Source: a virus (Duplodnaviria > Heunggongvirae > Uroviricota > Caudoviricetes). From it: 42,102 nt of DNA. Position numbers and translations under genes: made by a program. The DNA lies in IMG/VR virus record IMGVR_UViG_3300036790_000204, positions 1 through 42,102 of that record. The stretch is one strand, 5' to 3'. Shown here in pieces: positions 4,298-31,324 of the stretch. Within the stretch, counting starts at the first letter, position 1; each line of letters opens with the position of its first letter. The notes beneath the pieces were generated by a model. It was given only the letters and a program-made list of their open reading frames with translations. It ran no database searches and was not told the origin of the DNA.

Positions 4298-4434
4298 GCC
4301 GCACCTCGAGCCGCCGCGCGCGCTCGAGCAGCTGCGCGCGGATGAACTCCAGCGACGTCGTAGCCGGCCAGGTGGTATCCCCACCCTGCGCCCCCGGCGT
4401 TGCAGAACAAGTCGAGCAGCCGCGGGCGCCTCAT
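4294..4434 (-). pseudogene. Remnant of a second DNA cytosine methyltransferase
   Basis: MRRPRLLDLFCNAGGAGWGYHLAGYDV is motif I of a C5-MTase; frame then shifts (LEFIRAQ in another frame) and stops after 46 aa. Confidence 0.7.
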
Positions 4435-16691: not shown

Positions 16692-16781
16692 GTTTCCGTG
16701 CGGAAACCATCCGGAAAGAGAGCTTTCCGTGATTGCCTCACGGGAGGGGTTTCCCGAAGGAAACGGTTTCCGCGCGGAAAC
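16692..16781. promoter_or_regulatory. Three GTTTCC-N4-GGAAAC palindromic operators
   Basis: Copies at 16692-16707, 16749-16764, 16766-16781. Confidence 0.75.
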
Positions 16782-17968
16782 TAGATGACGCCCATGCGCC
16801 ACGCAAGGCCGCGAAGATCATTCCCCGGCGCCTGGTCAATCATGAACGCCACAAGATCCCGGATCAACGGCGAATTCCGCACCTGATCAGGGGAAAGCCG
16901 CTCAGCCGTCTTCAGCGCCCGCACGGCGTCCGAGTGCCTGCCGAGCATCGCATGCGCCCGGGCCGACTCGATCCGCAGCGCAGCCCGACGGTTGTTGCTC
17001 GCCAGCGCGCGCGGGTCGACCTTGTCGGCGTGCGCGAGCGCCTGCCCGGCGTTTCCGGCCTCCACCGCCAGCGACGCCAGCCACACCCGCGCGTTGGACG
17101 GCCCGGCAAGCTCCCACGCGTCGGCCCGGTCCTCCATCCGCGACGCGAGCCGCATCGCCTCGGCCCCCTGGTCGGCGGCCCCGTCATGGTCGCCCTGCAC
17201 CGCCCGCGCCAGAGCCGCCGATAGCCGCAGCATGACCAGCACCTCGAGCGCCATGCCCCCCTGCCCGGCGTGGGCGTCCATCCGATCGGCCGCCTGCGGC
17301 GTCGTCATCAGCGCCCGCGGCCGGTTCGCCGAGCTGCGCGCATGCGCTGCCCCGAACGCCGCCGCGCCCTCCCACACCGGGTCGCCGAGCAGCGCCGCGG
17401 CCTGCCTGCCCCGCTCGGCGGCCACCCACGCGAGATCAGGCTGGTTGGCGTACCGGAGGGTGATCACGGCGTTCGCCGTGGCCGGCACCAGCAGCCGCAG
17501 CGCCTCGTCCCGGCTCGACCCGCCGGACGCCGCGTGGACCTCGAGCTCGCCGATCAGGGTGGGCAGCAGAGGCAGCAGTGCATCCCAGTCCGAGACGCGC
17601 AGCGCGGCGTCGGCCTGGTCGTTCAGCTCCGCCAGCACGGCCACCGGGCGTGCGCCCATGTCCGGCGGGTCATCGGGCGCGGAGTCGAGCAGCGCCGACC
17701 GCAGCGGGTTCAGGTTCAGGGAACGGCGGCCGGCCTGAACTTCCGGAGCGGGCTCGCCGAGCAGCGCGTCGGCGGACACCTCGAGCGCGTCGGCCAGCGC
17801 CCCGATGTCGCTGCGCTTGTCCAGCGGCAGCCGGCCGTTCTCGATCTTGGACAGCCACCCCTTGGTGCGCCCGACGCGGCCCGCAGCTATCTCGAGGGAG
17901 AGCCCTTTCGCGCGCCTCGCTCTGCGCACTGCCATCCCTATGCGGCCGCGATCGCTGTTAGACTCCAC
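16781..17968 (-). CDS. XRE HTH regulator with large helical (TPR-like) C-terminal domain
   Basis: VRRARRAKGLSLEIAAGRVGRTKGWLSKIENGRLPLDKRS..LADALEV; helical repeats ending AERLSP. Confidence 0.88.
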   Translation of the reverse strand: MESNSDRGRIGMAVRRARRAKGLSLEIAAGRVGRTKGWLSKIENGRLPLDKRSDIGALADALEVSADALLGEPAPEVQAGRRSLNLNPLRSALLDSAPDDPPDMGARPVAVLAELNDQADAALRVSDWDALLPLLPTLIGELEVHAASGGSSRDEALRLLVPATANAVITLRYANQPDLAWVAAERGRQAAALLGDPVWEGAAAFGAAHARSSANRPRALMTTPQAADRMDAHAGQGGMALEVLVMLRLSAALARAVQGDHDGAADQGAEAMRLASRMEDRADAWELAGPSNARVWLASLAVEAGNAGQALAHADKVDPRALASNNRRAALRIESARAHAMLGRHSDAVRALKTAERLSPDQVRNSPLIRDLVAFMIDQAPGNDLRGLAWRMGVI

Positions 17969-18071: not shown

Positions 18072-18332
18072 CTAGGCGTCGGCCTCGAATAGCACGTGCA
18101 TCCCGAGCTCGGTTCCGTCGGCGAGCGTCGCCGTCACCCGGTCGGCCAGTCCGCAGGCAAGGTGAGCGGGCGTCTCGTGCACGGTGACCTGTCTGACGTC
18201 GCAGCTCGCGGCGAGCGCCATGGCCAGCGCGTAGCCGGCAGAGCGACGCGGTGCGGGCTCGGGCAGCTCGCCGTCAAAAAGCGTGTTCACACCGCCACGA
18301 TAGGCGACACACCCGACATTCGCGGGCGTCAT
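18072..18332 (-). CDS. Hypothetical protein
   Basis: ATGA overlap at 18332. Confidence 0.55.
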   Translation of the reverse strand: MTPANVGCVAYRGGVNTLFDGELPEPAPRRSAGYALAMALAASCDVRQVTVHETPAHLACGLADRVTATLADGTELGMHVLFEADA

Positions 18333-18895
18333 TCGCCTGACGCGGCTTCCCCGATACCGGCGTCGGGCTTCCACGCCGGGCTGCAGTCGTCGTGGTCAGA
18401 CCAGATGCCGGCGAGATGCCGCAGCGCCAGCGGAGGCGCAGGCTCCGGGCGCTCGCCGTCCCCCCTCGGCCGCCGCCAGTACGACTCTTCGGTGTAGTCG
18501 AACCTTTCCCAGCCGTCGTTTCCGCGCGCGGTGTTGCGCTCCCAGCCGTCGCCGTCTGGCGCGTCGTCGGCGCCGTCCCACGCCTTGCGCTGGCCGGAGG
18601 TGGTCGCGTAGTCCCATGCCGGGTTGGCGCACCGAGCGTGCATCTGCTCGTCGGTTTCGGGCTCGCGCCCGGCCGGGGCGTGCATCGCGACGATCGCCCG
18701 CATGGCCTCGACCTCGCGCAGCACGCCGTGGCACGTGGCCTCGACATCCCGCCAGGAATGCCAGCCGGGGATCTCGCAGCCGAGGAAGCGCGGGCCTTTC
18801 AGGGCCGCGATCGTGTCCTGCGCGACGGCGAGAAGCTCGCGGGCACCGCGCTCCCGGTCATCCAGTCGCGCCGTCAAGAACTCGACGATCGTCAT
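18329..18895 (-). CDS. DUF6221-like protein, copy 2
   Basis: MTIVEFLTARL..LREVEAMRAIV..LRHLAGIWSDHDD. Confidence 0.78.
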   Translation of the reverse strand: MTIVEFLTARLDDRERGARELLAVAQDTIAALKGPRFLGCEIPGWHSWRDVEATCHGVLREVEAMRAIVAMHAPAGREPETDEQMHARCANPAWDYATTSGQRKAWDGADDAPDGDGWERNTARGNDGWERFDYTEESYWRRPRGDGERPEPAPPLALRHLAGIWSDHDDCSPAWKPDAGIGEAASGE

Positions 18896-19269
18896 GCGGG
18901 ATGCCCCGGCGGGTAGTCGGGGTGGTCGGACCACACTTCGGCGCGGTCCCAGATGCACGCCAGCACCATCGACGCCAGCGGCGGGAACAGGACTCGGTCG
19001 AGGAGCGTCTTCGGGTTTCGCAGGGTCTCGTAGCGGGCGATGATCGCGCGGTCGGCCTTGACCTCGCGGAGCGCCCGCTGGGGGTCGTTGAGGGCGATGT
19101 GGTCGGCGTCGGCCCCGCACGCGTTGGCCGCGCACGCGCCATCCCAGTGCGGGTCGTCGCACGTGATGATGATGTCGTCGCCCGTCGCGCGCCAGTCGCC
19201 GGGCGTCGCCGCCTCGGCCGCCGCCGCCCGCTCGTTCAAGCGCGCCGTCAGGAACTCGACGATCGTCAC
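18892..19269 (-). CDS. DUF6221-like protein, copy 1
   Basis: MTIVEFLTARL..HIALNDPQRALREVKADRAII..WSDHPDY. Confidence 0.8.
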   Translation of the reverse strand: MTIVEFLTARLNERAAAAEAATPGDWRATGDDIIITCDDPHWDGACAANACGADADHIALNDPQRALREVKADRAIIARYETLRNPKTLLDRVLFPPLASMVLACIWDRAEVWSDHPDYPPGHPA

Positions 19270-19273
19270 TGAT

Positions 19274-19795
19274 TCATCCTGTGCTCGGGTCGGGGGCGCC
19301 TTTCGCTGCCGCCGACACCGCGGTCACCCGCAGCGGGCCGAGTGCCGCCCGCGCCGCGATCGCCGCCACGGACAGCGCCGCGTCGGGCTCTGCGGATTCC
19401 ACTGTCACCCGGACCACGATGCTGCCGTGCACCCGCTCAGTTCTCGCGTCGCTGACCGCCGGGTGCCGCTTGGCCGCCGCCGGCAGGGCCGCGTCAACCC
19501 TGGCGGCCTCCTTGTCGGCCTCGCCGCCCTCCGGCAGCCGGGCGAAGAAGTCAGCGAGCCACAGACGCCGGGCCGGAACAGTCATGCCGCGGCGTGGCAC
19601 CGCCTCGAGGAGCCCCTCGCCGACGAGCTGCCGGAAAGCCTGCTGGACAGTGTGCTGGCTGACCCCCGTCTCGACGGCCAGCTCGGGGCCGGACGGGAAC
19701 CGCGCGCCGAGGATGTCGAAGTCGCCTGCCAGGATGCGGACGCGTAGCCAGTCCGCTACCTGCTCGTAGCCCGAGGCGCTTGTGGTGACTCTCAA
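19274..19795 (-). CDS. GntR-family regulator (KorA/KorSA-like)
   Basis: YEQVADWLRVRI..FPSGPELAVETGVSQHTVQQAFRQLVGEGLL; TTG at 19795 has a GGGAG RBS, ATG 19879 is an alternative. Confidence 0.85.
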   Translation of the reverse strand: MRVTTSASGYEQVADWLRVRILAGDFDILGARFPSGPELAVETGVSQHTVQQAFRQLVGEGLLEAVPRRGMTVPARRLWLADFFARLPEGGEADKEAARVDAALPAAAKRHPAVSDARTERVHGSIVVRVTVESAEPDAALSVAAIAARAALGPLRVTAVSAAAKGAPDPSTG

Positions 19796-19847
19796 CCGGC
19801 TCCCTTTCCCGCGCGCACCGCTGTTCCGGAACATCGTAGAGCCAGCG

Positions 19848-19937
19848 GCCTTAGAGGCTCTCTTTGAAGGGCTTGACATCGGCGTTTCCTCGGTTAGCCT
19901 AAGACTGCAAGATAAGCCTTAGCCACTAAGGCTAACC
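19848..19937 (+). promoter_or_regulatory. Rightward sigma70-type promoter overlapped by inverted-repeat operators
   Basis: TTGACA 19873-19878, 16-bp spacer, TAGCCT 19895-19900; GGTTAGCCT/AGGCTAACC inverted pair; GCCTTAG at 19848 and 19916, CTAAGGC at 19926. Confidence 0.7.
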
Positions 19938-19957
19938 CATCCCACGAAGGAGCGCCC

Positions 19958-20005
19958 ATGGGCAAGATCCTGATCGAGACCGTCCCCAAGCAGGGCGGCA
20001 AGTAG
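19958..20005 (+). CDS. 15-aa micropeptide MGKILIETVPKQGGK
   Basis: GAAGGAG RBS immediately upstream; all codons after ATG end in G/C. Confidence 0.5.
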   Translation: MGKILIETVPKQGGK

Positions 20006-20089
20006 CTCGCACGCAAGCAGGCCGCCACGGCGACCCAATCACCGTGACGGCCCTAGCACCCAAACCGAACCAGCCGATCGGGGCACCTG

Positions 20090-20197
20090 ATGATCACCGT
20101 AATCCGCAACGCGATCCGCGCCTACCGCTGCAGCAAGTGCGCCGGCACCTCCACCTACGCCGCCGTCTGCTGCGGCGAGCCGATGTCGGGGGGCTGA
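20090..20197 (+). CDS. 35-aa zinc-ribbon microprotein
   Basis: MITVIRNAIRAYRCSKCAGTSTYAAVCCGEPMSGG. Confidence 0.55.
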   Translation: MITVIRNAIRAYRCSKCAGTSTYAAVCCGEPMSGG

Positions 20198-20200
20198 GCG

Positions 20201-20596
20201 GTGAGCCACAACGACTGGCTTCAGGACTGCGAGCTTGCCGACCCGGACACGGCCGTCGTCGTCCACATCCACGACGGCCGCCCGTTCCGCCGGCTCACCG
20301 CTGCCTGCGGCGCGAGCCTCCCCGCCGAGGACGACAGCAACGCCCCCAGCCCCGACGCTCCCCTGTGCGTCCGCTGCGCAAAGGAATGCTGGCGGGCGGA
20401 AAGCCAGCCCCGCTGGACGCTGAGCCGCGCCGTGACCATCGTGGTCGTGGTCCTGCTCACTGCCGCCTCGGCTTACATCGGCTACCGCGTCGCCCAGTCG
20501 AGCGCCCCGGCCCCGGTCAACGTCCCCGCCTACTTCTGCCCCGCCGGCCAGCACGTGGCCAGCGTCTCGGGCGTCTGGCCGGTGTGCGCCCGATGA
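20201..20596 (+). CDS. Zinc-finger plus transmembrane protein
   Basis: H..ACG..LCVRC motif then TIVVVVLLTAASAYIGY helix. Confidence 0.65.
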   Translation: MSHNDWLQDCELADPDTAVVVHIHDGRPFRRLTAACGASLPAEDDSNAPSPDAPLCVRCAKECWRAESQPRWTLSRAVTIVVVVLLTAASAYIGYRVAQSSAPAPVNVPAYFCPAGQHVASVSGVWPVCAR

Positions 20597-21108
20597 ACCG
20601 CGCCGACCGCGCCAAGTGGAAGCGCGCCGAGACGATCGATGACCTTGCCGCGCTGGTGATCTCGTGGCTGAACGGGGACATCGAGCAGACCCCGAGCCAC
20701 ACCGGGGGACCGGAGACCGAGACCATCCCGCTTATCCCGGTGCTGACCCGCGCCAACCGCGCCGGGTTCCTCACCGAGATCAGCCAGCGCGCCGACGGCG
20801 ACGACGAGGCGTGGGTGGCCGGCTTCGCATCCGACGCCGCCCTGCTCGGCCTGCTGGCCGCGACCGCCGGGACGCCCCTGATCGTCGCCGCCTGCCGTGG
20901 CACGGTCCACGACTGCGACCGGGCCGGGATCTGGTGGTACTGCCCGTGGAAGGAAGTCGCGAACTTCTGGGCCGAGCGGTGCCCGCACGTCAAAGACGAG
21001 CTTTACGCCTGCTGGTACGTCACCGTCCGCGACCCCGAGCCGGGCCGCAACAACGTGCTGTGGCCAGCTCTCGAGGCGTTCGCCCTCGCTTCGCGGGTGA
21101 TCTCGTGA
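20593..21108 (+). CDS. DUF6919-like protein, copy 1
   Basis: WKRAETIDDLAALVISWLNGDI..NRAGFLTEISQ..AWVAGF..DPEPGRN. Confidence 0.72.
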   Translation: MNRADRAKWKRAETIDDLAALVISWLNGDIEQTPSHTGGPETETIPLIPVLTRANRAGFLTEISQRADGDDEAWVAGFASDAALLGLLAATAGTPLIVAACRGTVHDCDRAGIWWYCPWKEVANFWAERCPHVKDELYACWYVTVRDPEPGRNNVLWPALEAFALASRVIS

Positions 21109-21443
21109 CCGCCCCCGACCGGGACAACCTCGCCGAGTACGAGGTCGAGCTAGACGCCAAGCCCGTCACTGGCCTCTCGATCCTCAAGGGCGTGGCCTAC
21201 TTGATGCCGTCGACCTCGGCGCAGGCCGCTTTCTGCGAGGCGCTCGTCGAGTGCCGCGAGATCGCCCGGCGCAACCTCAAGGGCAGCCGCGCCTACCGCC
21301 AGATCTTCGGCGACGACGAGAGCGAGCCGATCGCCAAGTGCCACGAGACGCCCGGCGACGACGACCACGGGGCGACTAGCCGACTCGAAGCCGATGTGGC
21401 CCGGATGGTCCGCGAGGGCCGCAAGAACTGGAGCGACCAGTGA
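21105..21443 (+). CDS. Hypothetical protein
   Basis: GTGA-coupled at both ends. Confidence 0.65.
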   Translation: MTAPDRDNLAEYEVELDAKPVTGLSILKGVAYLMPSTSAQAAFCEALVECREIARRNLKGSRAYRQIFGDDESEPIAKCHETPGDDDHGATSRLEADVARMVREGRKNWSDQ

Positions 21444-21958
21444 CCGCCGACCTGACCCTCCCGGACCCGTGGGGTTCCGCGACAAGCCTCGACGACCTCG
21501 GCGACCTGATCGTCGCATGGCTCGACGGGCGCATCTGGAGCACCCCGGCCCTGCAGGGGCCCCCCGACCCCGAGATCATGCCTCTCGCCGACAGCCTCAG
21601 TGCCGCTGCCCGCTCCGGGCTGCTCGTCATCGGCGCCCGCGCCGCAGACGACCACGACGGCGCCTGGGCCGACGCCCTCGCCACAGACGAGACCGTCGCC
21701 CGCCTCCGCGCCGCAGCCGCCGGCACGCCCCTCGTCACGGCCGCCTGCCGCGGCGTCACCCACGAGTGCGGCCGCACCGGCTGGTGGTTCTGCCCGTGGA
21801 AAGAGCAGACCGACTGGTGGGCGTCCCGCTGCCCCCTCGTCTGGAAGCAGGTCTACGGCCTCTGGCACGTCAGCGTCTTCGACCCCGAAGGGTGCCGCAG
21901 CGGGCGCCTCGGGGCCGTCCTCGACTCGTTCGCCCTGGCATCGCGGGTGATCTCGTGA
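21440..21958 (+). CDS. DUF6919-like protein, copy 2
   Basis: Paralogous to 20593-21108 with identical FALASRVIS end. Confidence 0.7.
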   Translation: MTADLTLPDPWGSATSLDDLGDLIVAWLDGRIWSTPALQGPPDPEIMPLADSLSAAARSGLLVIGARAADDHDGAWADALATDETVARLRAAAAGTPLVTAACRGVTHECGRTGWWFCPWKEQTDWWASRCPLVWKQVYGLWHVSVFDPEGCRSGRLGAVLDSFALASRVIS

Positions 21959-22077
21959 TCACCCTCGACCTGCGCCCCGCGCGCGATGACCAGCCGGACG
22001 GCCCCCCGCGCGACGGGTGCATCCTCTGCGCCGCCGTTGCCGGCCCTGGCTGCCCGTACCACGGGAGCGCCCGATGA
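21955..22077 (+). CDS. 40-aa Cys/His microprotein
   Basis: GCILCAAVAGPGCPYH; coupled at both ends. Confidence 0.5.
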   Translation: MITLDLRPARDDQPDGPPRDGCILCAAVAGPGCPYHGSAR

Positions 22078-22358
22078 TCGCCGCCGTATCCGACATCCGC
22101 AACTGGCAGGCGCGCGGCCTCTGCTCCAAGCTCCCCGCCGCCGACCGGGTGTTCTTCGGGGCTGACGGCGAGTCGCCCGAGGATCAGGCAGCGCGGGAGG
22201 CGCAGGCCGTGCAGGTCTGCGACCGCTGTCCCGTGCAACTGCGCTGCGCCCTCTGGGCTCTCCGCACCGGCGCCGACTTCGGCGTCTACGGCGGCCTCAC
22301 CGAGAAAGAGCGCGCCGACATGAAGCGCGACGGAACCCGCAAGGAGGCTGCCGCATGA
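22074..22358 (+). CDS. whiB: WhiB-family Fe-S transcription regulator
   Basis: [31 protein letters not shown]. Confidence 0.92.
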
Positions 22359-22588
22359 GCGCCCGCCTGCTCGCCGTCGCCCTGATCGCGGCCGCGTTCC
22401 TGCTCGGGCCGCATTTCGTCGCGGCGCTCGCCCTGTTCGCGTTCGCCGCCGTGACGCTCCTGTTCGTCCACATGGCCGCCCTGCTCACGGTCCTGACCAT
22501 CGGGACCACGGTCGGGCTGCTCTTGCTCATCGCCGGATCACTTCGGCGATCCGGGTTCCTGCTCGTCTCCAGGAGGCTCGCATGGTAA
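22355..22588 (+). CDS. Small multi-pass membrane protein (Spd-like position)
   Basis: Almost entirely hydrophobic; directly upstream of the translocase. Confidence 0.68.
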
Positions 22589-25026
22589 ACCGCGACCGGG
22601 GTCGCGACCACGACCGCGACCGCGACCACGAGAACGTCGTCCCGATCCGGCCGGAGGACGACGACGACCTGCAGGTCATCGCCCCGGCCGACGACGACGA
22701 CGAGAGCGGGCCCATTAAGCTCGGCGGGGCAATCGAGCCGGCGCCCAAGCCGGCGCGCGACGAGCAGGCCGACGTGCCGCGCCGCGCCGAGATCATCCCC
22801 GCAGCGTTCAGCCGCGCCCAGTGGAAGCAGACCCTTACGGATTGGGCGCACGAAACCGGGTTCCGCGTCGCATTCCACGGCGTTCGCATCCCTTTCAAGT
22901 ACGTGCCCGGCTCTCTCTTTTACACCGTCCGCGGGGGCACCCGCCTCGGCCGCAGCTGGGGCACGTGGGTGTCGGCGCCGACTCTGAAACTCGCCGAGTC
23001 CGCCGCTGTGGTTAAAGGCAACGCCGGCCACGCGCAGATCCTGCAGGCTCACACGGAGGGCCGCAGAACCCGCAAGATGCGCTGGCAGATCACCGGCGGC
23101 GTGGCGCTCGCGGCCGGCGTCGCGGCGGCGGCGATCGCCGGCTGGACCCCGTGGGAGGTGCAGGACACCCTCGCCGCCGGTGCAGCCGGCGTAGTCGCCT
23201 ACCACGGGCGCCCGGTCGACGGGCCGCTCATCCCGCGCGCGGTGCTGCCGCCCGCCTACCAGGTGCCGACACCGGAGCTGATCCAGAAGGCGCTCGGGAC
23301 GGCCATACCCGCCATCGGGAAATACCTCGAGAGGAAAGGCCCCCTCGACAGGAAGAACACTCTCGACTGGGTGTCCGACGTCCACCGCGACGGCCCCGGG
23401 TGGGCGGTCGAGCTCGACCTGCCCGAGGGCGTGACGGCAAAGCAGGTCATCGCCAAGCGCCCCGAGCTGTCGTCGCTGCTGCGCCGGCCGCTGTCGGCCG
23501 TGTGGCCCGAAGGCGTTCCCGGCGAGCACGAGGGGCGCCTGTACCTGTGGATCGGCCGCCACGACATGTCGAAGATGAAGGCGCCGCCGTACCCGTTCCT
23601 CAAGGGCGGCACGTTCGACTACTTCCAGCCGGGCCCGTTCGCTTTCACCCCCCGCGGCGTCCCGGTCCTCGAGAAGCTGTTCGGCAAGAACTGGCTGATC
23701 GGCGGGGCACCCGGCAACGGGAAGACATCCGCGGTGCGGGTGCTCGCGTGCAACGCCGCGCTCGACCCGACCTGCGAGATCTGGGTTCACGAGCTGCTCG
23801 GCAAGGGCGACCTTGACCCGTTCGGCCTGGTCGCCCACCGGTACTGCTCGGGACTCGACCGGGAGTCGCTCACCTACGCGGCGCAGTCGCTGGAACTGCT
23901 GGTCAAAGAAGTCGACCGGCGCACCGGCATCCTCAAGAAAATCCCGCTGGTCGAGCGCCCCGACGGGTCCATCACCCGGGAGATCGCCGCCAAGTACGGG
24001 CTTAACCCGCTGGCGGCGATCTTCGACGAGATCCACAACGTGTTCCTCGACGAGGAACTCGGCCCCAAGGCCAAAAAGCACATCAGTCACCTCATCAGGT
24101 CGGCCCGGGCACTCGGCATCACGATCATCGCCGCGACCCAGCGACCCGATAAAGACTCGATCCCGACCAACATGTCGGGCATCGTCACGACCCGGTTCTG
24201 CCTGAAGGTGCCGGACTGGCTGAGCAACGACATGATCCTCGGCACCGGCAGCAACAACGCCGGCTTCTCGTCGGTCGCGTTCAGGCAGGAGACCGACGCC
24301 GGCCTCGGCTGGCTCAAGGGCACCGCCGACCCGATGCCCGTCAAGACCTACAACCTCAAGCTCACCCACACCCACAAGATCTGCGTCCGCGCCCGCGCGC
24401 TGCGGGAAGCGGCCGGAACGCTGTCGGGGTACGCGCTCGGCGAGGACGACAGCACCAGGTCGCTGCTCGACGACACGCTCGGAGTGTTCGCCCCGGCCGA
24501 AGCCTTCCTGTACCGGGAGACGATCGCCACCCGCCTCGCGCAGCGCTATCCCGGCACCTACGCCGGCCTCACAGCCGACGCGCTGTCATCCGACGTGCGG
24601 GCGCTCACCGGCCGCGGCATGGACGACGGCCGCGAACCCGGCGGGAACACCCTCAAGGGCATCAAGCGCACCACGATTCAGGACGCGATCGACAATGGCC
24701 CGGCGACCGCCGAACCCCCGGACGAGCCGGCCGCCGACGACCAGACAGCACCCGAGTCGGCACCGGCGGACGACCCCGCTGCGATGGGCCCGCTCGAGCA
24801 GCTGCTCTACGCGGCCGAGCTGGTCATCATCCCGCAGCACGGCTCGACTCAGATGCTCGGCCGCAAAATGCGCGTCGACCGCGCCCGCGCCGGCGAGCTG
24901 ATGGACGAGCTCGAGCACTGCGGCGTCGTCGGACCCGATAAGGGAGCGAAGGCGCGCGAGGTGCGCAAAAAGCCGGCCGAGCTCAAGCAGGTTCTCGCCG
25001 AGATCCGGGAGACCGTCGATGCCTAG
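22582..25026 (+). CDS. traB: FtsK/SpoIIIE-family TraB-like conjugative DNA translocase
   Basis: N-terminal hydrophobic segment; Walker [10 protein letters not shown], Walker B IFDEIH, ATQRP motif; C-terminal winged-helix and FtsK-gamma-like domain. Confidence 0.88.
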
Positions 25027-25072
25027 GACAACGGGATGCCCCACGGGAACGGATGTGGTTTGGGCGCTGAGG

Positions 25073-25210
25073 CCGCAACAATCTGTTGCGCCAGCGCAAC
25101 ACGCGCTGACCTGCGAAAACACGAATCCGCGCAACAAACCGCGTCCTCGGCTAGGGGTGCGCAACACACTCCGCAACACGCTGACCTGCGGAAACACGGC
25201 CTGCGCAACA
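25073..25210 (+). repeat. Putative clt (cis-acting locus of transfer) octamer array
   Basis: GCGCAACA at 25094, 25129, 25159, 25203; CCGCAACA at 25073, 25171; inverted TGTTGCG at 25084; GCTGACCTGCGRAAACACG-like motif at about 25105 and 25180. Confidence 0.75.
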
Positions 25211-25283
25211 ATCCGGCTCGACGGGGCCCCGATCAGGGCCGAAACCCGCGCCCTAGGGCCATGCACCGGAAGAGGGGGGCTTT

Positions 25284-26507
25284 TTGAAGGCGCGGCTAAC
25301 GCTGTGGCACTGCGGGCGCTGCGGGAAGGCACGCGGACGGCACCACCTGTGCTCGGGCGGCCGGAAGGGACGCGACCGGATCAAGCTCCGGATGGCGTTC
25401 ACCTGCCCGTCATGCGGCGCGAGCACGCCCAACCCGCTGACGCACCGCTGCGTCAAAAAGTCGGACTTCAAGCGCCGGAAAGCCGCAGCGAAGCGGCACG
25501 ACCAGGCCGAGGCCCGGAAGCGGAGACGGCGCGCGGCGGCCGCCCGGAAACGGGCGCGGCTCAGAGAGCGGAAGCGCGCGCGGGCGGAGCGCCGCAGGCT
25601 GCAGCGCGCCGCCACGGCGGCCGCCCGGAAGCAGTCGGCGCGCGCCCGCTCCCACAACGCGAACAGGCACGAGCCGGCCGACTGCCGCGACGAGAACTGC
25701 ACAAGCAAACCCTGCGCCTGGTATCGCGCCGGGAGGACGGACGGCCTGGTGATCGGCCGGGCCGAGGGCTACGGCGACGGGTTCACCGACGGGTTCGCCG
25801 AGTGCCTGTCGCAACGTTTAGGGGGCTGCCATGGGCGACGTGATCCTGAAGGCGATCCCGGTGCTATTCGTCGTCGGCGTGCTCTACCTGGCGCTGCTGC
25901 TGATCCACCCGATGCACGAGTGCCCGCGGTGCGGCGGCGCGCGGGTGATCAGGAACGGCCGGAACGTCAAAGCCTGCAAGAAGTGCAAGGCGACCGGCCG
26001 CGCGATCCGGTTCGGCGCACCGTTCGCACACAAGCTCGCCCGCGAGCATGTGTGGCCGTGGATCCGCGCCCGCATGGAGGACACGGCCGAGCGCAGGCAG
26101 GAGGGGCCGCGATGACGCTTAAGGGCAGTTTCCAAGGGTCATTCCAGCTCAAGCAGGCACGCGCCCCGGTTCTGCGCCTGCTGCTGCCGGCGCTAGCCGC
26201 CGCGCTGGCCTGCTGGCTGGCCATGGCGCTCGCGTGGCTGCTCGCGGTCATCGTCGGCGCGTTCGGGCTGGCGATCGTCGGGGGCAGCCTGTGGCTGCGC
26301 CATTGGTCGCGCCGCGCCGAGGCCGGATTCGCGGCCAGTCAGCTCGCCAACCCCGTGCGACCCGCGATCACAGCTTCGGCGCAGCCCGCGCCGATGATCG
26401 TCAACCACTACCACGGGCCCGTCACCGTCCACGTGGGACCGGGGTCGGACCCATCGGCGTTCGGGGCGGTCCGGCCCCTCGCCATCACCACCGAAACAGA
26501 GGAGTAG
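25284..26507 (+). CDS. Zinc-finger/basic protein whose frame runs without a stop into the 26112 membrane gene
   Basis: CGRC..C, CPSC..C, CRDENC..C motifs and Arg-rich helix; likely functional part about 25284-25830. Confidence 0.55.
   Translation: MKARLTLWHCGRCGKARGRHHLCSGGRKGRDRIKLRMAFTCPSCGASTPNPLTHRCVKKSDFKRRKAAAKRHDQAEARKRRRRAAAARKRARLRERKRARAERRRLQRAATAAARKQSARARSHNANRHEPADCRDENCTSKPCAWYRAGRTDGLVIGRAEGYGDGFTDGFAECLSQRLGGCHGRRDPEGDPGAIRRRRALPGAAADPPDARVPAVRRRAGDQERPERQSLQEVQGDRPRDPVRRTVRTQARPRACVAVDPRPHGGHGRAQAGGAAMTLKGSFQGSFQLKQARAPVLRLLLPALAAALACWLAMALAWLLAVIVGAFGLAIVGGSLWLRHWSRRAEAGFAASQLANPVRPAITASAQPAPMIVNHYHGPVTVHVGPGSDPSAFGAVRPLAITTETEE
25831..26115 (+). CDS. Membrane-anchored DnaJ-type zinc-finger protein
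   Basis: TM helix then CPRCGG..CKKCKATGRAIRFGA; AGGGGG RBS. Confidence 0.75.
   Translation: MGDVILKAIPVLFVVGVLYLALLLIHPMHECPRCGGARVIRNGRNVKACKKCKATGRAIRFGAPFAHKLAREHVWPWIRARMEDTAERRQEGPR
26112..26507 (+). CDS. Membrane protein (Spd-like)
   Basis: GGAGG RBS, ATGA overlap, long hydrophobic region, NHYHGP tail. Confidence 0.68.
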   Translation: MTLKGSFQGSFQLKQARAPVLRLLLPALAAALACWLAMALAWLLAVIVGAFGLAIVGGSLWLRHWSRRAEAGFAASQLANPVRPAITASAQPAPMIVNHYHGPVTVHVGPGSDPSAFGAVRPLAITTETEE

Positions 26508-26511
26508 CGAG

Positions 26512-26664
26512 ATGGCCAAGGACGAGAACGACAAGAAGTGCCAGCAGCAGGTCGAGTTCGGCAACGGGGGCGGCATCAAAACCTGCGACGACAAGCCGAA
26601 GCCGGGCGCGCCCGAGGAAAACTGCGACTACCACGACCAGGTGCGCAGGGACGGCAACCGGTAG
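26512..26664 (+). CDS. 50-aa C..C..CxxH microprotein
   Basis: GAGGAG RBS; MAKDENDKKCQQQVEFGNGGGIKTCDDKPKPGAPEENCDYHDQVRRDGNR. Confidence 0.6.
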   Translation: MAKDENDKKCQQQVEFGNGGGIKTCDDKPKPGAPEENCDYHDQVRRDGNR

Positions 26665-26701
26665 CCGGGGGGCGCCACCACCGAGACAAAGGAGCAGTGA
26701 C

Positions 26702-26857
26702 ATGGCAATCCCCAAGGGCTACGGCCGCGCGGACGCGAGGCTCGCCGACGGCCTGGAAAGGGCCGCCACGGCGGCGGACGCCGACCGGATCGCCAAGGCC
26801 GACGGCCACGCCGACCGCGACGCGGCCGAGAAATGGCTCGAGGAGCGGTCCGGGTGA
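26702..26857 (+). CDS. 51-aa microprotein
   Basis: AAGGAG RBS; MAIPKGYGRADARLADGLERAA..AEKWLEERSG. Confidence 0.6.
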   Translation: MAIPKGYGRADARLADGLERAATAADADRIAKADGHADRDAAEKWLEERSG

Positions 26858-26937
26858 GCGGCCAGAACGACGCCATCGGCGTCACCGACGACAAGTGGGC
26901 CGAACAGCAGCAGGGCAACCAGGAAGGGAAGCGCTGA
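26854..26937 (+). CDS. 27-aa microprotein
   Basis: GAGGAG RBS, GTGA overlap; MSGQNDAIGVTDDKWAEQQQGNQEGKR. Confidence 0.45.
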   Translation: MSGQNDAIGVTDDKWAEQQQGNQEGKR

Positions 26938-27183
26938 CATGGGCTGGCTCATCGCGCTAGGCGTGCTCTACCTGCTGTTCCACGGCCCACCACTACAGGA
27001 GGCGTCGGCGTCGGGGCCTGTCTGTTTGGGCCAGTATCCCTGGGCCATTTGGAACAAGAATCTCAAAAAGGTTCTGATCGGTTCTGATCACCCAGCAGGG
27101 CGGCCAGCCTCCCCACTGGCCGCCCGACCGGGCAATCAGCACCAGGGGACAGCCCGACCCCCCCATCGAACAGGAGGAACACC

Positions 27184-27501
27184 ATGCCACTACCCGATCT
27201 CACCCCCGAGCAGCGCGAGGCGGCACTCGCGAAGGCGGCCGCGACCCGAACCGCCCGCGCCGAGGTCAAGAACCGGCTGAAGACGGGCGACGTCACCCTG
27301 ATGTCCGTCATCGACGACGCCGACCCGCTGATCGTCGGGCGCATGAAGGTCACGGCGCTGCTGCAGGCGGTGCCCGGCATCGGCAAGGCGCGGGCCGCGC
27401 AGATCATGGCCCGCATCGGGATCGCCGAGACGCGCCGGGTCGCCGGCCTCGGGAAAGCCCAGCGCGCCGCCCTCGCCGCCGAGTTCGCGCCGGCGGCCTG
27501 A
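27184..27501 (+). CDS. mihF: Actinobacterial integration host factor (mIHF/sIHF family)
   Basis: LPDLTPEQREAALAKAAATRTARAEVKNRLK..MKVTALLQAVPGIGKARAAQIMARIGIAETRRVAGLG; AGGAGG RBS. Confidence 0.93.
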   Translation: MPLPDLTPEQREAALAKAAATRTARAEVKNRLKTGDVTLMSVIDDADPLIVGRMKVTALLQAVPGIGKARAAQIMARIGIAETRRVAGLGKAQRAALAAEFAPAA

Positions 27502-27514
27502 CCAACCATCGACA

Positions 27515-27541
27515 GCCGGGGGCGCAGCTTGCGCCCCCGGC
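27515..27541 (+). terminator. Perfect 12-bp hairpin after mIHF
   Basis: GCCGGGGGCGCA-GCT-TGCGCCCCCGGC. Confidence 0.6.
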
Positions 27542-27560
27542 GGCAACCGGAAGGAAGACG

Positions 27561-28763
27561 TTGACCGACTACCGGGAGGAACGGAGGCGCGACCGGGCCG
27601 CCGCCGCCCAGATCAGGCGCGACGACGAGGCCGCTGGCGCGAAGCTGCGCGCGACCGAGGCGAAGGCGAAGCTCGAGCGGAAAGCGACCGCCGGCAGGGC
27701 CCGCGCCGCACGCTGGCAGGCGCTCGGCCGGTGGGTCGCCGACCGTTCGGCCGACCTGCTGCTCGCGCCGGTCATCGTCGTCGGCGCGGTCCTGGCGTGG
27801 ACCGGGATGGCCGCCTACGGCGAGGAAGAGTACGGCACGCCCGGCCTGCTGCTGCCGGCGCTGTCGGAAGGCGGCATGTGGGCGTTCGCCATGGCCACCA
27901 CCCTGACCGCCCGCAGGCACCCGGACCGGCCGCTGTGGGCGTTCCGCCTCGGAACCATCGTGTTCGCCGGATACGGGGCGGCGCTCAACTTCCTGCACGG
28001 CGACTCGGCCGGCGGACTGGCCGAGGGCATCGCGATGGCGCTCGTGTCGGTGGCGGGGGTGACCGCGCACCAGCTCGTCACGGCAGGGCCGAAGCTCAGC
28101 CGGCAGGACCGCGAGCGGCGCCGGCTGCGGCGGGCTGCGGAGCGACGCGAGCGCACGGCGATGCGGGCCGCGCTGCGGGACTCGCGGGTCGTCATCGGGG
28201 CTGACGGAAGCGCGCGGATCGTCGTCGCCGAGGGCGTCGCCACACTCGACCGCGGATGGCTCCGGACCCGGCTCGAGATCGACGCCGGGAACCCGGCCGG
28301 GGGCGCCGCGGAACCAGCCACCGAGGCAGCTCCGGAGGGATCGCCGGAAGCTCCGGGGCGACCCTCAATCGCGCCGCCGCATCCCCTCACCGTCGCCCTC
28401 ACCTCAAGCCCGCACGGCACCCTCAGAATGACCTTCGCCCGGCCCGCAGCGATGCCCTCAATCGGGCCCGCGCAGCGGGTGCCGGAACCGCAGGTCAGCG
28501 CCCCCGAAACGCCCTCACCGGAACCGGCGCCGGCGCCCCCGAAAACAGCTTGCGAGACACCCTCGCCGCGCCCTCGCGCGACGGCGCCGAGGGGCCGCGC
28601 GAAATCCCGCGCCAAGGTGGACGCGCTCATCGTCGCCGGCGGCATGACCAACGCGGCGATAGCCCAGCAGGCGGGAGTCTCCGTGGCTACCGTCGAGCGT
28701 CGCAAGGCAGCGCTCCGCGAGGCAGCCGAGGTGACCAACCTCGCCGACCGCCGCCGCGCGTAA
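27561..28763 (+). CDS. SpdB/DUF2637-like membrane protein with C-terminal HTH
   Basis: Four TM segments (AWTGMAAYG..LLLPALSEG..GAALNFLH..AHQLV), Pro-rich linker, MTNAAIAQQAGVSVATVERRK HTH. Confidence 0.72.
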   Translation: MTDYREERRRDRAAAAQIRRDDEAAGAKLRATEAKAKLERKATAGRARAARWQALGRWVADRSADLLLAPVIVVGAVLAWTGMAAYGEEEYGTPGLLLPALSEGGMWAFAMATTLTARRHPDRPLWAFRLGTIVFAGYGAALNFLHGDSAGGLAEGIAMALVSVAGVTAHQLVTAGPKLSRQDRERRRLRRAAERRERTAMRAALRDSRVVIGADGSARIVVAEGVATLDRGWLRTRLEIDAGNPAGGAAEPATEAAPEGSPEAPGRPSIAPPHPLTVALTSSPHGTLRMTFARPAAMPSIGPAQRVPEPQVSAPETPSPEPAPAPPKTACETPSPRPRATAPRGRAKSRAKVDALIVAGGMTNAAIAQQAGVSVATVERRKAALREAAEVTNLADRRRA

Positions 28764-28805
28764 CCGAACCCTGCCATCCCAGTGATCCCAACAGGAGGAA
28801 CAACC

Positions 28806-29255
28806 ATGACCGTGCAACCCGACACCGAGACCATCCCGGCCGAGGAACCGTGGGACCGCACCAGCGGACCCGTGCACGCCCAGTTCGGCCTGACCTACGC
28901 CAACTTCCTGATTTGGCACCGGGCGCACATGCAGTCGATGCCGCTGGAGTGGCAGCGGCGGTTCGTCGACCTGTCCGAGGAGTTCAGCGCCGCCTACCCT
29001 GTCGCGGGCAGCCTGTGCTACGAGGTCGCCACCGTTCGGGACGCCTACGTGAACGAGCTCACCGACGACGAGATGAGGCAGCTCGGCGTCGAGCGCGGCG
29101 ACGACGGGGAGGGCTTTTACAGGTCCGGCTGCGAGTTGAACGAGCACGAGCACATCGGCGTGCCGGTCCCCGACCCGGTGCCGCACTACAGGCACGCCTA
29201 CCTGCCGCCCGACGAGGCCGCTATCGCAGCGGTCAAGGCGCAGCGCGAGAGCTAG
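28806..29255 (+). CDS. Hypothetical actinophage protein
   Basis: AGGAGG RBS; VHAQFGLTYANFLIWHRAHMQSMPLEWQRRFV. Confidence 0.75.
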   Translation: MTVQPDTETIPAEEPWDRTSGPVHAQFGLTYANFLIWHRAHMQSMPLEWQRRFVDLSEEFSAAYPVAGSLCYEVATVRDAYVNELTDDEMRQLGVERGDDGEGFYRSGCELNEHEHIGVPVPDPVPHYRHAYLPPDEAAIAAVKAQRES

Positions 29256-29266
29256 CCCCGCGAAAC

Positions 29267-29303
29267 CGAGAGCCCGGCAGACGGAATGGCCGCCGGGCTC
29301 TCG
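29267..29303. terminator. Hairpin between convergent genes
   Basis: CGAGAGCCCGGC / GCCGGGCTCTCG perfect 12-bp stem. Confidence 0.65.
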
Positions 29304-29310
29304 CGCGCGC

Positions 29311-29847
29311 TTACCGCCGGGATCTGCGTGGCTTTGGGACTCCGGGCGCACCCTGACCGGTGCGCCTGGCATCCCACAGTGCCCAGTCTCCCGGCTCGCC
29401 CCCGGCAAGATAGACGCGCTCGGGCAGCCAGCCGAGGTCGGGAACGCCGCCGCGACCGGGCCGCAGCTCGGCGTCTGCGGCCGGCCAGTCATGGTAGCGG
29501 CGCAGCCACCCGGATGATGTCGACGGATCCCGGCCGAGCAGAGCGCCGACCCCGCCGATTGTGAGGTACCGGACGGGCGCGGGCCGGGGGAGCGCGGGCG
29601 GCCGGTCGGGGGCGTTCCGAGCGCCCTGGCCGGGGCGCGAAGCGTTCCACGCTCTCACCTCGGCCTCGCGATCGGGCGACCATCCGCGGTCGAACCCTCC
29701 GTGCCGGCCGGGCTCAAACCGGGCGTCCTCGGCCGGCCAGTCGTCATACCGCTTGAGCAGGACCGACGCTGAGCGCGGCGCGACGCCGCACCACGCCCCG
29801 AACACGGACGCGCCGACGTACACGGCGGCGCCCTGCCTCGCCGTCAT
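29311..29847 (-). CDS. Tandem two-domain HTH (AlpA/excisionase-like) protein
   Basis: Two copies of Y..G...GV/GR....L.RY.DWPA.DA...PGR.G..D.GW..R...W.A.R.GQG. Confidence 0.7.
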   Translation of the reverse strand: MTARQGAAVYVGASVFGAWCGVAPRSASVLLKRYDDWPAEDARFEPGRHGGFDRGWSPDREAEVRAWNASRPGQGARNAPDRPPALPRPAPVRYLTIGGVGALLGRDPSTSSGWLRRYHDWPAADAELRPGRGGVPDLGWLPERVYLAGGEPGDWALWDARRTGQGAPGVPKPRRSRR

Positions 29848-30536
29848 GCGTTGCCCGCGCATGCGGAAGCCAGCAAGGCGCTGCTCATCGCCGCAGCGGC
29901 GGCGGGGCGGCCGGTGTCCGCGAAGCCGCATGCCAGAGCCTCGAGCATGGCGAGCGCGACATGGGGGTCGAGGTCGTGAAGCTCGATGTCGACTTTCGTG
30001 CCCGAGTTGGTGTCGGTGACGTCGGCGTGATGCTTCCATCCGCTGCTAGGGAGCCGGACGCGGATGCTGCCGGGCGTCCTGCCGAATCCGCGCCGTTCGG
30101 AGCCGGGGACGGCGGCCGTGATCTGCGCGGTGATGCGCTCCCGGTCGGCGGCCGCCAGTTTCTCCGCCGTGACGTCGGCGACGGCCTGCTTGAGCAGCGT
30201 CTCGTACCCGGGTAGCAGTCTCCTGCGCAGGTCGGCCGCCGCTTCGCGCGGGTCGCGGCGGAGCGCGATCGTCGCCTCGCATCGTTCGCCGCGCCTCAGC
30301 CGCCAGCTTGGGGGGAACGCGCCGGTGACGCGGACGCGCCCTTCGGCGACGAAGCCGGGGGCGGTGCTGAGGCTGAGGCGGCGGCCGTCGTGGTGCTCTG
30401 CGAAGACCATGGTCGAGGACGGGCCGGGCGAGTACCGCCATCCGTCGCCGAATGCGGCGGCGATCCCGGCGGTGAGGCGGCGTAGCTGGGCGGCGGTGTC
30501 GTATGCGTCGAACTGGGCCAGGCTGATGTTGCGCAT
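29844..30536 (-). CDS. Hypothetical protein
   Basis: GC-biased codons; coupled to the downstream HTH gene. Confidence 0.7.
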   Translation of the reverse strand: MRNISLAQFDAYDTAAQLRRLTAGIAAAFGDGWRYSPGPSSTMVFAEHHDGRRLSLSTAPGFVAEGRVRVTGAFPPSWRLRRGERCEATIALRRDPREAAADLRRRLLPGYETLLKQAVADVTAEKLAAADRERITAQITAAVPGSERRGFGRTPGSIRVRLPSSGWKHHADVTDTNSGTKVDIELHDLDPHVALAMLEALACGFADTGRPAAAAAMSSALLASACAGNA

Positions 30537-30680
30537 GGGCTGGCGGTCCCCCCCGTAGTGTTGAGTGTTTACAGGGTCAAAGTTATGGACCGCGCCAACA
30601 ACTGTCAACTTAGACGCGCAACACTCCCGAGAGGCACCAGGTCACCACCACAGCGACGCAAACCCCGCACCCGACGCATC

Positions 30681-30917
30681 ATGACCGCCGTGACCGCAGC
30701 AATCGCCGACCTCGCCACCCACCGCAGAAACCGCCTCGAGCAACGCGCCGACCCAACCCACCCAGCACTCCGCTGGACCGCCGGAACCAACACCGAATGG
30801 GCACACCGCCGCCGCCACGACGCAACCGCATGGTGCGGCGCACCCGGCACCCTCACCATCGCCCCCACCGACACCGACCGCTGCCCCGCCTGCTACGGAT
30901 CCAGCCCCGGAAACTAA
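30681..30917 (+). CDS. Small Cys/His protein upstream of terminase
   Basis: WAH..AWCGAPG..RCPACY. Confidence 0.55.
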   Translation: MTAVTAAIADLATHRRNRLEQRADPTHPALRWTAGTNTEWAHRRRHDATAWCGAPGTLTIAPTDTDRCPACYGSSPGN

Positions 30918-30919
30918 CC

Positions 30920-31324
30920 ATGCCCGCCCCCAAACTCACCCCCGAGATCCAACAGGCGATCACCACCGCGATCGCCCAAGGCGCCAACGCAACCCAGGCC
31001 GCCAGAACCGCGGGCATCGGCCGAAGCACCCTCTACACATGGGCACAACAGGGCGCCAGACCCGGCGCCGAGAAAAACCGGCGCGCGATCAGCGAGGCCC
31101 TGGCGCGCGCGCGCGCGGAAAAGTCCCGACGGGCCGTGACCCGCGAGACGATCGCCGACGACCGCGGGCGCACGGTCGGCACCAGGGTCACCAGGCGGCT
31201 CCGGAACGGCGTGACCGAGGTCACCGAGGACTACCAGCGGCCGGACCGCCGCGCGCTCCGCAGGCAGCTCAGGCAAGCCCATCAGGGCGACCCGCTCGAG
31301 GCGCTGTTCGGCGTGACCGCGTGA
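30920..31324 (+). CDS. Terminase small subunit-like HTH protein, copy 1
   Basis: PKLTPEIQQAITTAIAQGANATQAARTAGIGRSTLYTW..LARARAE. Confidence 0.65.
   Translation: MPAPKLTPEIQQAITTAIAQGANATQAARTAGIGRSTLYTWAQQGARPGAEKNRRAISEALARARAEKSRRAVTRETIADDRGRTVGTRVTRRLRNGVTEVTEDYQRPDRRALRRQLRQAHQGDPLEALFGVTA

Follow-up and report, generated by a model that had tools for sequence, protein, structure and literature searches.

The subject of this analysis is a 42,102-nt stretch of DNA (hereafter the window), which comprises bases 1-42102 of the 106,102-bp IMG/VR virus record IMGVR_UViG_3300036790_000204, with soil as the DNA source. This record represents a complete temperate actinophage of 106 kb, integrating and siphovirus-like; it has a 127-bp direct terminal repeat (DTR) and a CheckV completeness of 100%. 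Between its repressor and terminase genes the phage encodes a GntR-family regulator, a TraB-like double-stranded DNA (dsDNA) translocase of the FtsK family with a repeat array just downstream of its gene, and an SpdB2-like membrane protein. We consider it probable that these genes constitute an integral, lineage-conserved transfer and spreading module, derived from plasmids or from the integrative and conjugative elements of actinomycetes (AICEs), by which the phage DNA would be transferred between cells. The original prediction for this DNA had described the element as a phage-AICE hybrid. Because the GC content is about 70% throughout, and uniformly so, genes were called by third-position GC (GC3 frame plot).

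The translocase (TraB; 814 amino acids, 22582-25026, plus strand) matches the FtsK_gamma model (PF09397, E 5e-12). Its score on FtsK_SpoIIIE (PF01580), 21.7 bits, is just under the cut-off, whereas the chromosomal FtsK proteins of Actinomadura and Pseudonocardia reach 226-245 bits on this model, and on the NCBIfam FtsK equivalog the translocase obtained only a trivial score. Direct comparison with TraB of the Streptomyces plasmid pSVH1 gave an E value of 7e-35 and 30% identity over the motor, and the alignment identifies a Walker A-like GAPGNGKTS, a Walker B-like FDE, and an ATQRPD motif in the phage protein. In its AlphaFold model (predicted local distance difference test score, 81.8), a disordered N-terminus is followed by long helices (residues 78-209, with a single hydropathy peak at 170-188), an FtsK-like alpha/beta motor (approximately 230-620), a first winged helix (642-705; a strand, three helices, two strands, and a helix) that is conserved in all homologues, a linker, and a second winged helix, which is the FtsK-gamma domain (737-813). 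The best Foldseek matches in the PDB were FtsK motors with dsDNA (E 2e-14).

A database search returned 933 homologues of the translocase. Among plasmids, 96 records were matched, mostly small Streptomyces plasmids and pSVH1 among them, and the top-ranking relatives with annotation come from small plasmids of actinomycetes, in each of which they are the only FtsK-like protein. The best match from Streptomyces (35% identity, E 9e-64) is on an 18.4-kb plasmid of Streptomyces sp. NBC_00562 that carries the full pSAM2-like AICE set of GntR, NUDIX, DUF2637, FtsK, prim-pol, and integrase. The phage records searched with the translocase yielded only matches to the gamma domain and one weak match to the motor, in gp10 of Streptomyces phage Gilgamesh (E 1e-6). 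Homologues of about 680 residues without the gamma domain occur in minimal integrated elements, and those of about 780-815 residues with this domain are found on 92-135-kb contigs with phage genes. A 7-kb element consisting of WhiB, DUF2637, FtsK, and integrase genes lies beside rpsB and tsf (locus L053).

In a maximum-likelihood tree of 31 proteins (branch supports 87/92 and 90/96), the translocase nests in a clade that includes the homologue from this 7-kb element; the clade is sister to the TraB proteins of AICE plasmids and pPaSha2, and then to the pSVH1/pFP11 clade. Outside these are the Gilgamesh-type proteins, and chromosomal FtsK proteins are very distant, on very long branches. Chromosomal FtsK as well as the short phage proteins have long branches in this tree, and the placement of the short phage FtsK-like proteins, with about 35% of the columns filled, is unreliable and was not interpreted. 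The phylogeny agrees with the original prediction in that TraB groups with plasmid and AICE TraB rather than with non-conjugative FtsK, and the assignment of the translocase to a distant clade of the plasmid/AICE-type TraB family is well supported by these comparisons. A close variant of traB in a second soil run has a 12-nt insertion at window position 22602, in an N-terminal Asp/Arg/His repeat; thus, the length of this repeat differs between strains.

A motif scan located a 138-bp array (25073-25210, plus strand) that starts 47 bp past the traB stop codon and contains six direct copies and one inverted copy of SCGCAACA, together with two copies of a 23-nt unit containing GCTGACCTGCG. The octamer is found 14 times in the window, where 4.2 matches are expected, and none of 100 shuffles reached 14; half of these matches (7 of 14) are in the array, as are 7 of the 17 copies genome-wide. 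A genome-wide signal akin to the FtsK-orienting polar sequences (KOPS) was ruled out for this octamer, as the copies are clustered and neither dispersed nor polar. We then compared arrays across homologues by a single procedure, using the 360 bp 3' of each stop codon, which recovered the published GACCCGG(A) repeats of pSVH1. Arrays of CGCAACA follow the homologues in Actinomadura sp. KC216 and locus L051, arrays of CGCTACA those in Spirillospora and in several AICE-like loci or metagenome-assembled genomes (MAGs), arrays of CGCGACA those in Actinomadura gamaensis and one other locus, and arrays of CGCTACC those in three loci. The arrays follow the degenerate pattern CGCNAC(A/C) and typically hold 4-10 copies, whereas about 1 match to this pattern per 360 bp is the background level. 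Such an array is present after traB in five of eight viral relatives from IMG/VR. Because the word keeps its position beside the gene and changes by one or two bases between lineages, it fits a recognition sequence for TraB, and we infer from this pattern that the array is a putative transfer locus acting in cis (clt).

The wing of the first winged helix (TraB residues ~640-705; window 24500-24660) was set against the central base of CGCNACA across loci L019-L053. The wing residues ANRKG are found with G, xxRKG with T, and V/T-K/L with A as the central base of the repeat. The wing seems to track this base in sequences that are few and related, which makes the correspondence a lead only.

The GntR gene (19274-19834, or to 19879 with a longer start; minus strand; PF00392, E 2e-12) heads a leftward operon and is Kor/TraR-like by position. 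The resemblance of its product to pSVH1 TraR (E 6e-5) and to the GntR protein of an AICE plasmid (E 1e-7) is confined to the winged helix-turn-helix region. Divergence of this winged-helix gene from the tra operon recurs in relatives, with GntR in the same position in five loci (L086, L087, L090, L051, and L006). Facing the operon, a promoter-like sequence with an overlapping inverted repeat was read from the plus strand (19873-19937): a perfect TTGACA (19873-19878) is followed by a 16-nt spacer and by TAGCCT, a -10 element of the TANNNT type. The inverted repeat has 12-nt arms (19892-19903 and 19926-19937; 11 of 12 positions complementary), overlaps the -10 element, and is a candidate GntR operator. 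A strict sigma-70 scan of positions 19000-31500 called no promoter, including at the TTGACA-TAGCCT site, and terminator-like sites in the same interval are at chance level. Coordinates and orientation confirmed the predicted divergence of GntR from a promoter-like TTGACA sequence that faces the operon, and the other predicted components of the operon, namely the FtsK/TraB translocase, the octamer array just downstream of it, several membrane genes, and mIHF, were all located.

The SpdB2-like protein (400 amino acids, 27561-28763, plus strand) was identified by BLASTP against pSVH1 SpdB2. The match is weak but specific (E 1e-6, 29% identity, residues 1-192 versus 1-228) and covers the basic N-terminus and the membrane core, which in the phage protein are followed by a Pro-rich linker and a C-terminal helix-turn-helix (HTH). 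Hydropathy analysis found two peaks over the threshold and further hydrophobic stretches. An orthologue with 38% identity (E 4e-53) is encoded in the related phage G004. The original prediction had called this gene SpdB/DUF2637-like. Its SpdB half is retained in the form of direct similarity to SpdB2, whereas the DUF2637 label was dropped, as the protein has no match to Pfam DUF2637 (PF10935) even at E 10. SpdB2 of pSVH1 likewise has no DUF2637 match, and the syntenic proteins in loci L006 and L051 do match this model.

Two zinc-ribbon genes follow traB on the plus strand. The first (25284-25829, directly after traB) encodes a basic protein of ~180 residues with two CxxC zinc-ribbon motifs, which is 53% and 45% identical to the products of the genes after traB in loci L004 and L051. 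The second (25831-26115) encodes a 94-residue protein with an N-terminal membrane helix, according to hydropathy, and a zinc ribbon with only weak matches to zinc-ribbon families; its homologues adjoin traB in 12 chromosomal or metagenomic loci and in 6 viral loci. Neither gene product has a match to the "RRQRL zinc-binding" family of NCBIfam. Judged by this synteny, the two genes accompany this TraB clade as conserved partners, in chromosomal loci as well as in phages. At about codon 180, where its homologues end, the first zinc-ribbon gene lacks an in-frame stop, and its frame stays open through the next two genes to 26507; a TAG in the +1 frame (25819-25821) lies just before the next ATG (25831). 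The missing stop may reflect an indel of 1 nt in the assembly, or the stop codon may truly have been lost.

Capsid and tail genes are on the same replicon as the module, as the original prediction had supposed. TerL, the large terminase subunit (31943-33640, plus strand), is 48% identical to TerL of Gilgamesh (E 2e-140), and its best relative, at 57% identity, is in a phage-like plasmid of Thermobispora bispora. Downstream, a portal-MuF fusion (35980-38490, plus strand) matches the portal model PF04860 (E 1e-41) and, weakly, Phage_Mu_F (23.6 bits versus a cut-off of 29.6 bits); gene 46 of Gilgamesh carries the same annotation, and Gilgamesh shares with this phage both the TerL type and the fusion. 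Two HTH proteins (30830-31902, plus strand) are candidates for TerS, the small terminase subunit, by position and a weak HTH match; thus, TerL and portal of the predicted TerS-TerL-portal module are established by homology, and TerS keeps the status of a candidate. To the right of the window, the record encodes an HK97-fold capsid protein, a tail tube protein, Dit, two beta-helix tailspikes, DpdA, and a 1608-residue probable tape measure protein. A large serine recombinase (serine integrase) is encoded at 90.3-91.8 kb of the record and a short tyrosine recombinase of 243 residues at 93.7-94.4 kb.

A search for other contigs with both TerL and TraB/Spd had been suggested together with the original prediction; contigs that combine virion genes with TraB are G004, G005, and three further viral contigs that have capsid or portal genes and a TraB homologue. 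In G004, a complete DTR phage of 92 kb, genes for the HTH_31 repressor (69% identity), GntR, DUF6919, WhiB, TraB, zinc-ribbon proteins, mIHF, and the SpdB2-like protein follow one another as they do here; this phage has a portal gene and a different terminase. The 135-kb phage G005 shares most of this gene order. Across several complete phages, the module proteins are 38-66% identical. Since the module is syntenic in G004 and partly so in G005, with TraB homologues in three further viral contigs, it is, on the evidence of gene order, an integral and mobile part of several phage lineages.

Two replicons deposited as plasmids deserve mention here. The 145-kb "plasmid" of T. bispora ZC4 (NZ_CP039125.1; L054/L055) contains TerL, portal, and a 3,842-residue gene product twice, with identical accessions and about 108 kb apart, and it resembles a phage genome of ~108 kb whose assembly has a long overlap. 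On the 41.9-kb "plasmid" pPaSha2 of Pseudonocardia alni (CP052773.1; L012) are genes for phage Bet and a holin and, side by side, for DUF2637 and FtsK proteins, the latter 37% identical to the phage TraB; this phage-like replicon, too, has a TraB module.

The transfer region of pSVH1 from Streptomyces venezuelae, reportedly the subject of work by Reuther in 2006 and Vogelmann in 2011 and treated by Thoma in 2015 (PMC4447253), has the order TraR-SpdB3-Spd79-SpdB2-Orf108-TraB-clt. Like the phage, it has a GntR repressor divergent from an operon that encodes an SpdB2-type membrane protein and an FtsK-like TraB of about 800 residues, and a set of 8-bp direct repeats that lies at the 3' end of traB or beyond it. 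However, the SpdB2-like gene comes after traB in the phage and before it in pSVH1, the repeat is SCGCAACA in the phage and GACCCGGA in pSVH1, and the phage TraB has the additional FtsK-gamma domain. Unlike in pSVH1, genes for WhiB, DUF6919, and mIHF are interspersed in the phage module, and the replicon is a 106-kb phage rather than a 12.6-kb rolling-circle plasmid. The biology of TraB, clt, TraR, and SpdB2 is established for pSVH1 (PMC4447253).

AICEs are 9-24 kb long and combine Int, Rep (RepSA, RepAM, or prim-pol), and Tra, with no virion genes (PMC2440964, PMC3218068). Elements of this kind (pSAM2 type; the NBC_00562 plasmid and the L053 element) have the closest relatives of the phage TraB, at 35-49% identity, and share with the phage GntR, WhiB, DUF2637/SpdB companions, and a CGCTACA-type array after traB. 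In contrast to an AICE, the phage has its integrases at 90.3-94.4 kb, which is 65 kb off the module and in the phage integration region, and no RepSA, RepAM, or prim-pol was found among the open reading frames (ORFs) scanned. The proposed phage-AICE hybrid therefore holds insofar as virion genes and a module homologous to TraR/Kor-TraB-clt-SpdB2 are on one replicon; the element falls outside the definition of an AICE, and its gene content is that of a phage carrying an AICE-type transfer module.

On the one hand, this idea already has a precedent. The Streptomyces plasmid-phage pZL12 and its relative pSLE1 combine, like this phage, virion genes with an FtsK/TraD-like tra gene in a single replicon, and the 774-residue FtsK/TraD-like protein of pSLE1 (PMC4487206) is encoded just upstream of the terminase, the location seen here. 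According to papers that cite the original work, transfer of pZL12 needs the major tra gene together with two genes next to it (Zhong et al. 2010, cited in PMC3583192; pZL12/phiZL12, J Bacteriol 192:3747, also cited in PMC4487206 and PMC7157519). These two are ParAB-maintained plasmid prophages, whereas the present phage has a serine integrase and no match to ParA (AAA_31) or ParB_N. No pSLE1 protein, Tra included, is similar to the phage TraB at E 1e-3. Phages phiC31 and VWB are comparable in having a phage-borne SpdB2-like membrane protein; neither is known to have TraB or clt, whereas the present phage carries the whole set. These SpdB2 homologues of temperate Streptomyces phages have been noted before and were suggested to aid the spread of phage DNA in the mycelium (PMC4447253). 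The precedent thus consists of pZL12, experimentally and via citing papers, and the SpdB2 hint from phiC31 and VWB. On the other hand, our literature searches found no paper on a TraR-TraB-clt-SpdB2 set in an integrating phage and none on DUF2637 in connection with phages and FtsK. What is new here is the breadth, the integrating instead of plasmid lifestyle, and a defined candidate clt.

In the explanation that we favour, GntR would repress the divergent promoter, as in the kil-kor arrangement of the Kor/TraR type. When repression is lifted, TraB would form a membrane-associated, hexameric, FtsK-like pump, the winged helix of which would bind the SCGCAACA array downstream of its own gene, with the array acting as clt. 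The pump would then drive the phage genome, double-stranded and unprocessed, through septal cross-walls or into hyphae in contact, and the SpdB2-like, small membrane, and zinc-ribbon proteins could be the accompanying spreading complex. Several observations weigh against this explanation. TraB scores 13.3 bits on the NCBIfam plasmid_TraB equivalog (NF041214), for which the cut-off is 800, and because it misses this cut-off it is a distant relative of the characterised TraB proteins. In three of the eight viral relatives, an array is not obvious downstream of traB. The TraB gene is absent from the phage-like plasmid of Thermobispora, which has the closest TerL relative, so that the virion life cycle can do without the module. 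Actinophages, lytic ones included, commonly carry FtsK-like genes, and the authors who reported this guess at a role in replication (PMC11536984). Finally, the phage TraB has the extra, well-conserved FtsK-gamma domain, which was undetected in pSVH1 TraB and in the AICE-borne homologues of ~680 residues and which could point to a role in segregation or dimer resolution. Such a role is the main rival explanation, which we regard as unlikely: the translocase would act inside the cell, where it would free DNA from closing septa, load prespores, or activate Xer-type dimer resolution, and the array would serve for loading or orientation rather than as a transfer origin. The gamma domain is genuine and is 49-57% identical to those of phage FtsK-like proteins (49% for Gordonia phage MagicMan gp54 and Mycobacterium phage Purky gp55), and the short tyrosine recombinase at 93.7 kb would suit this role. 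MagicMan gp54, Purky gp55, and Gilgamesh gp10 are FtsK-family ATPases, as is TraB, and such widespread actinophage proteins are routinely annotated without a known role, with replication suggested (PMC11536984; bioRxiv 10.1101/2024.02.16.580700). However, the common phage proteins are ~350-residue soluble proteins that consist of motor and gamma domain only, lack the long TraB-like N-terminal region, and are encoded among replication and recombination genes; Gilgamesh gp10, of 637 residues, branches separately in the tree, with only 27-29% identity over the motor. Chromosomal FtsK (KOPS, XerCD-dif) resembles the phage TraB in motor fold, gamma domain, and the recognition of 8-bp words, which is putative for the phage protein, but KOPS are dispersed and polar, whereas the phage motif is clustered at one site. 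The grouping of the translocase with plasmid and AICE TraB, the SpdB2-like protein that accompanies it, and its close homologues in minimal integrated elements, where the only other recognisable functions are integration and regulation, also argue against a purely intracellular role.

Transfer of the phage genome also has to be weighed against the view that the phage captured the module from an AICE as cargo, which leaves this genome in place and instead affects host growth (kil/pock-like), excludes or hijacks plasmids and AICEs, mobilises host DNA, or is a decaying relic. Unregulated traB is toxic and in plasmids is under GntR control (PMC4447253), which is compatible with this view, as are the absence of the module from the closest TerL relative and the zinc-ribbon gene without an in-frame stop. 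We nevertheless find it quite unlikely: the motor has kept its motifs intact, every gene of the module shows strong codon bias, and conservation of the module, including the cis array on phage DNA, across complete phages at the protein identities given above argues for selection and for the phage genome as the substrate. An artefact, either a chimeric assembly or a separate AICE inserted in the phage, is very improbable, even though the record is a metagenome assembly. In an independent Logan assembly of the probable source run, a 23-kb contig covers 15001-27566 and a 16.6-kb contig covers 27537-35000, both with zero differences to the record. No single Logan contig bridges 27537-27566, where the two overlap by 30 nt only, but their depths are equal (74.9 and 77.3), the 23-kb contig holds the module contiguous with the immunity region, and the gene order from HTH_31 to the SpdB2-like gene is the same in the complete DTR genome G004. 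No integrase or AICE-type Rep was found near the module, direct repeats flanking it (candidate att sites) were limited to paralogue and low-complexity matches, and GC content is uniform. The equal depth, the absence of these nested-element features, and the occurrence of the module in other complete phages are in line with the single replicon of the original prediction. Contig "joints" of 20-23 nt in the Logan comparison were rejected as short-word noise from other organisms. The sequencing runs listed are soil metagenomes, with no RNA run among them, and other soil runs hold close variants.

The remaining genes of the rightward operon lie on the plus strand, and those up to traB have overlapping or abutting ends. 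The operon opens with two mini-ORFs, followed by a gene for a 131-residue protein with one predicted membrane helix (20201-20596; GC3 frame plot and hydropathy) and no family match. Next come two DUF6919 paralogues (20584-21108 and 21440-21958; PF21897, E 1.5e-22 and 1e-13), which are joined by a 190-nt direct repeat with 70% identity and flank a 112-residue ORF (21105-21443); a DUF6919 gene also adjoins traB in locus L006. A gene for a WhiB-like transcription factor (22074-22358; PF02467, E 3e-18) follows; both phage and AICE-like loci have whiB upstream of their traB homologue. Between whiB and traB, a gene for a very hydrophobic 77-residue membrane protein (22355-22588; hydropathy) overlaps the traB start, and in loci L004 and L051 a 63-residue ORF takes its place. 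Downstream of the zinc-ribbon genes are a gene for a 131-residue membrane protein (26112-26507; GC3 frames and hydropathy) and two small ORFs (26512-26664 and 26702-26857; GC3 frames); none of these three has a family match. The mIHF/sIHF-like nucleoid-associated protein (27184-27501; PF22525 H2TH_5, E 5e-26) had been listed in the operon by the original prediction; its gene is syntenic in phage relatives (L004, L006, L084, L086, and L087), but it is not a recognised conjugation gene.

The chromosomal relatives of TraB, at 44-51% identity, come from Streptosporangiales (Spirillospora, Actinomadura, and Streptosporangiaceae MAGs). Because of these and of the Thermobispora relative of TerL, the host is probably a member of Streptosporangiales and not Streptomyces.

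In the left arm of the phage, early genes on the minus strand encode a Rad52-type annealing protein, an exonuclease, a C5 methylase, an HNH nuclease, and HTH proteins. Of the predicted cro/repressor switch, the part that was verified is the repressor, an HTH_31 protein identified by family match (16781-17929). Three DUF6221 paralogues are found on the record, two of them directly downstream of GntR in the leftward operon (window region 18329-19269) and one at genome position 97607-98146; pSLE1 also has a DUF6221 gene, which adjoins its integrase gene. Between a minus-strand gene (29844-30536) and the candidate TerS genes, two GCGCAACA octamers form an isolated inverted pair with a spacing of 82 nt (30527-30623). 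Between TerL and portal, a low-GC gene (34821-35894; GC content 0.62-0.66) encodes two resolvase-type HTH domains, has a weak LAGLIDADG match, and is probably a free-standing homing endonuclease; two further HNH genes, at 60.8 and 69.3 kb, break up the structural region. The DpdA homologue (genome position 62991-63905, E 1e-80), a protein of 7-deazaguanine DNA modification, and the C5 cytosine methylase (window 4431-6143) suggest that the phage DNA is modified. A tRNA search of the window found none.

A broader possibility, which we put forward tentatively and with some doubt, is that this phage represents a widespread and so far undescribed class of integrating temperate "conjugative phages". 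In these, an AICE-derived TraB/clt/SpdB2 set would spread lysogeny as naked dsDNA through the mycelium and into neighbouring hyphae, bypassing receptors and virion-targeted defences. The recognition word (CGCAACA, CGCTACA, CGCGACA, or CGCTACC) would diversify together with the wing, and the gamma domain might provide a second specificity, for example for host chromosomal words, which would allow mobilisation of the chromosome. Modules of this type can confound the classification of contigs as virus, plasmid, or integrative and conjugative element, and several relatives have been deposited as plasmids. If the favoured explanation is true, the series of TraB proteins and their recognition words would be a natural resource for studying how FtsK-like pumps read DNA, and the line between prophages and AICEs would be blurred. 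Temperate phages of filamentous actinomycetes would then have two routes of spread, as virions and by direct pumping of the dsDNA genome between hyphal compartments or mating hyphae, which would change views on phage host range, superinfection, and defence in mycelial bacteria.

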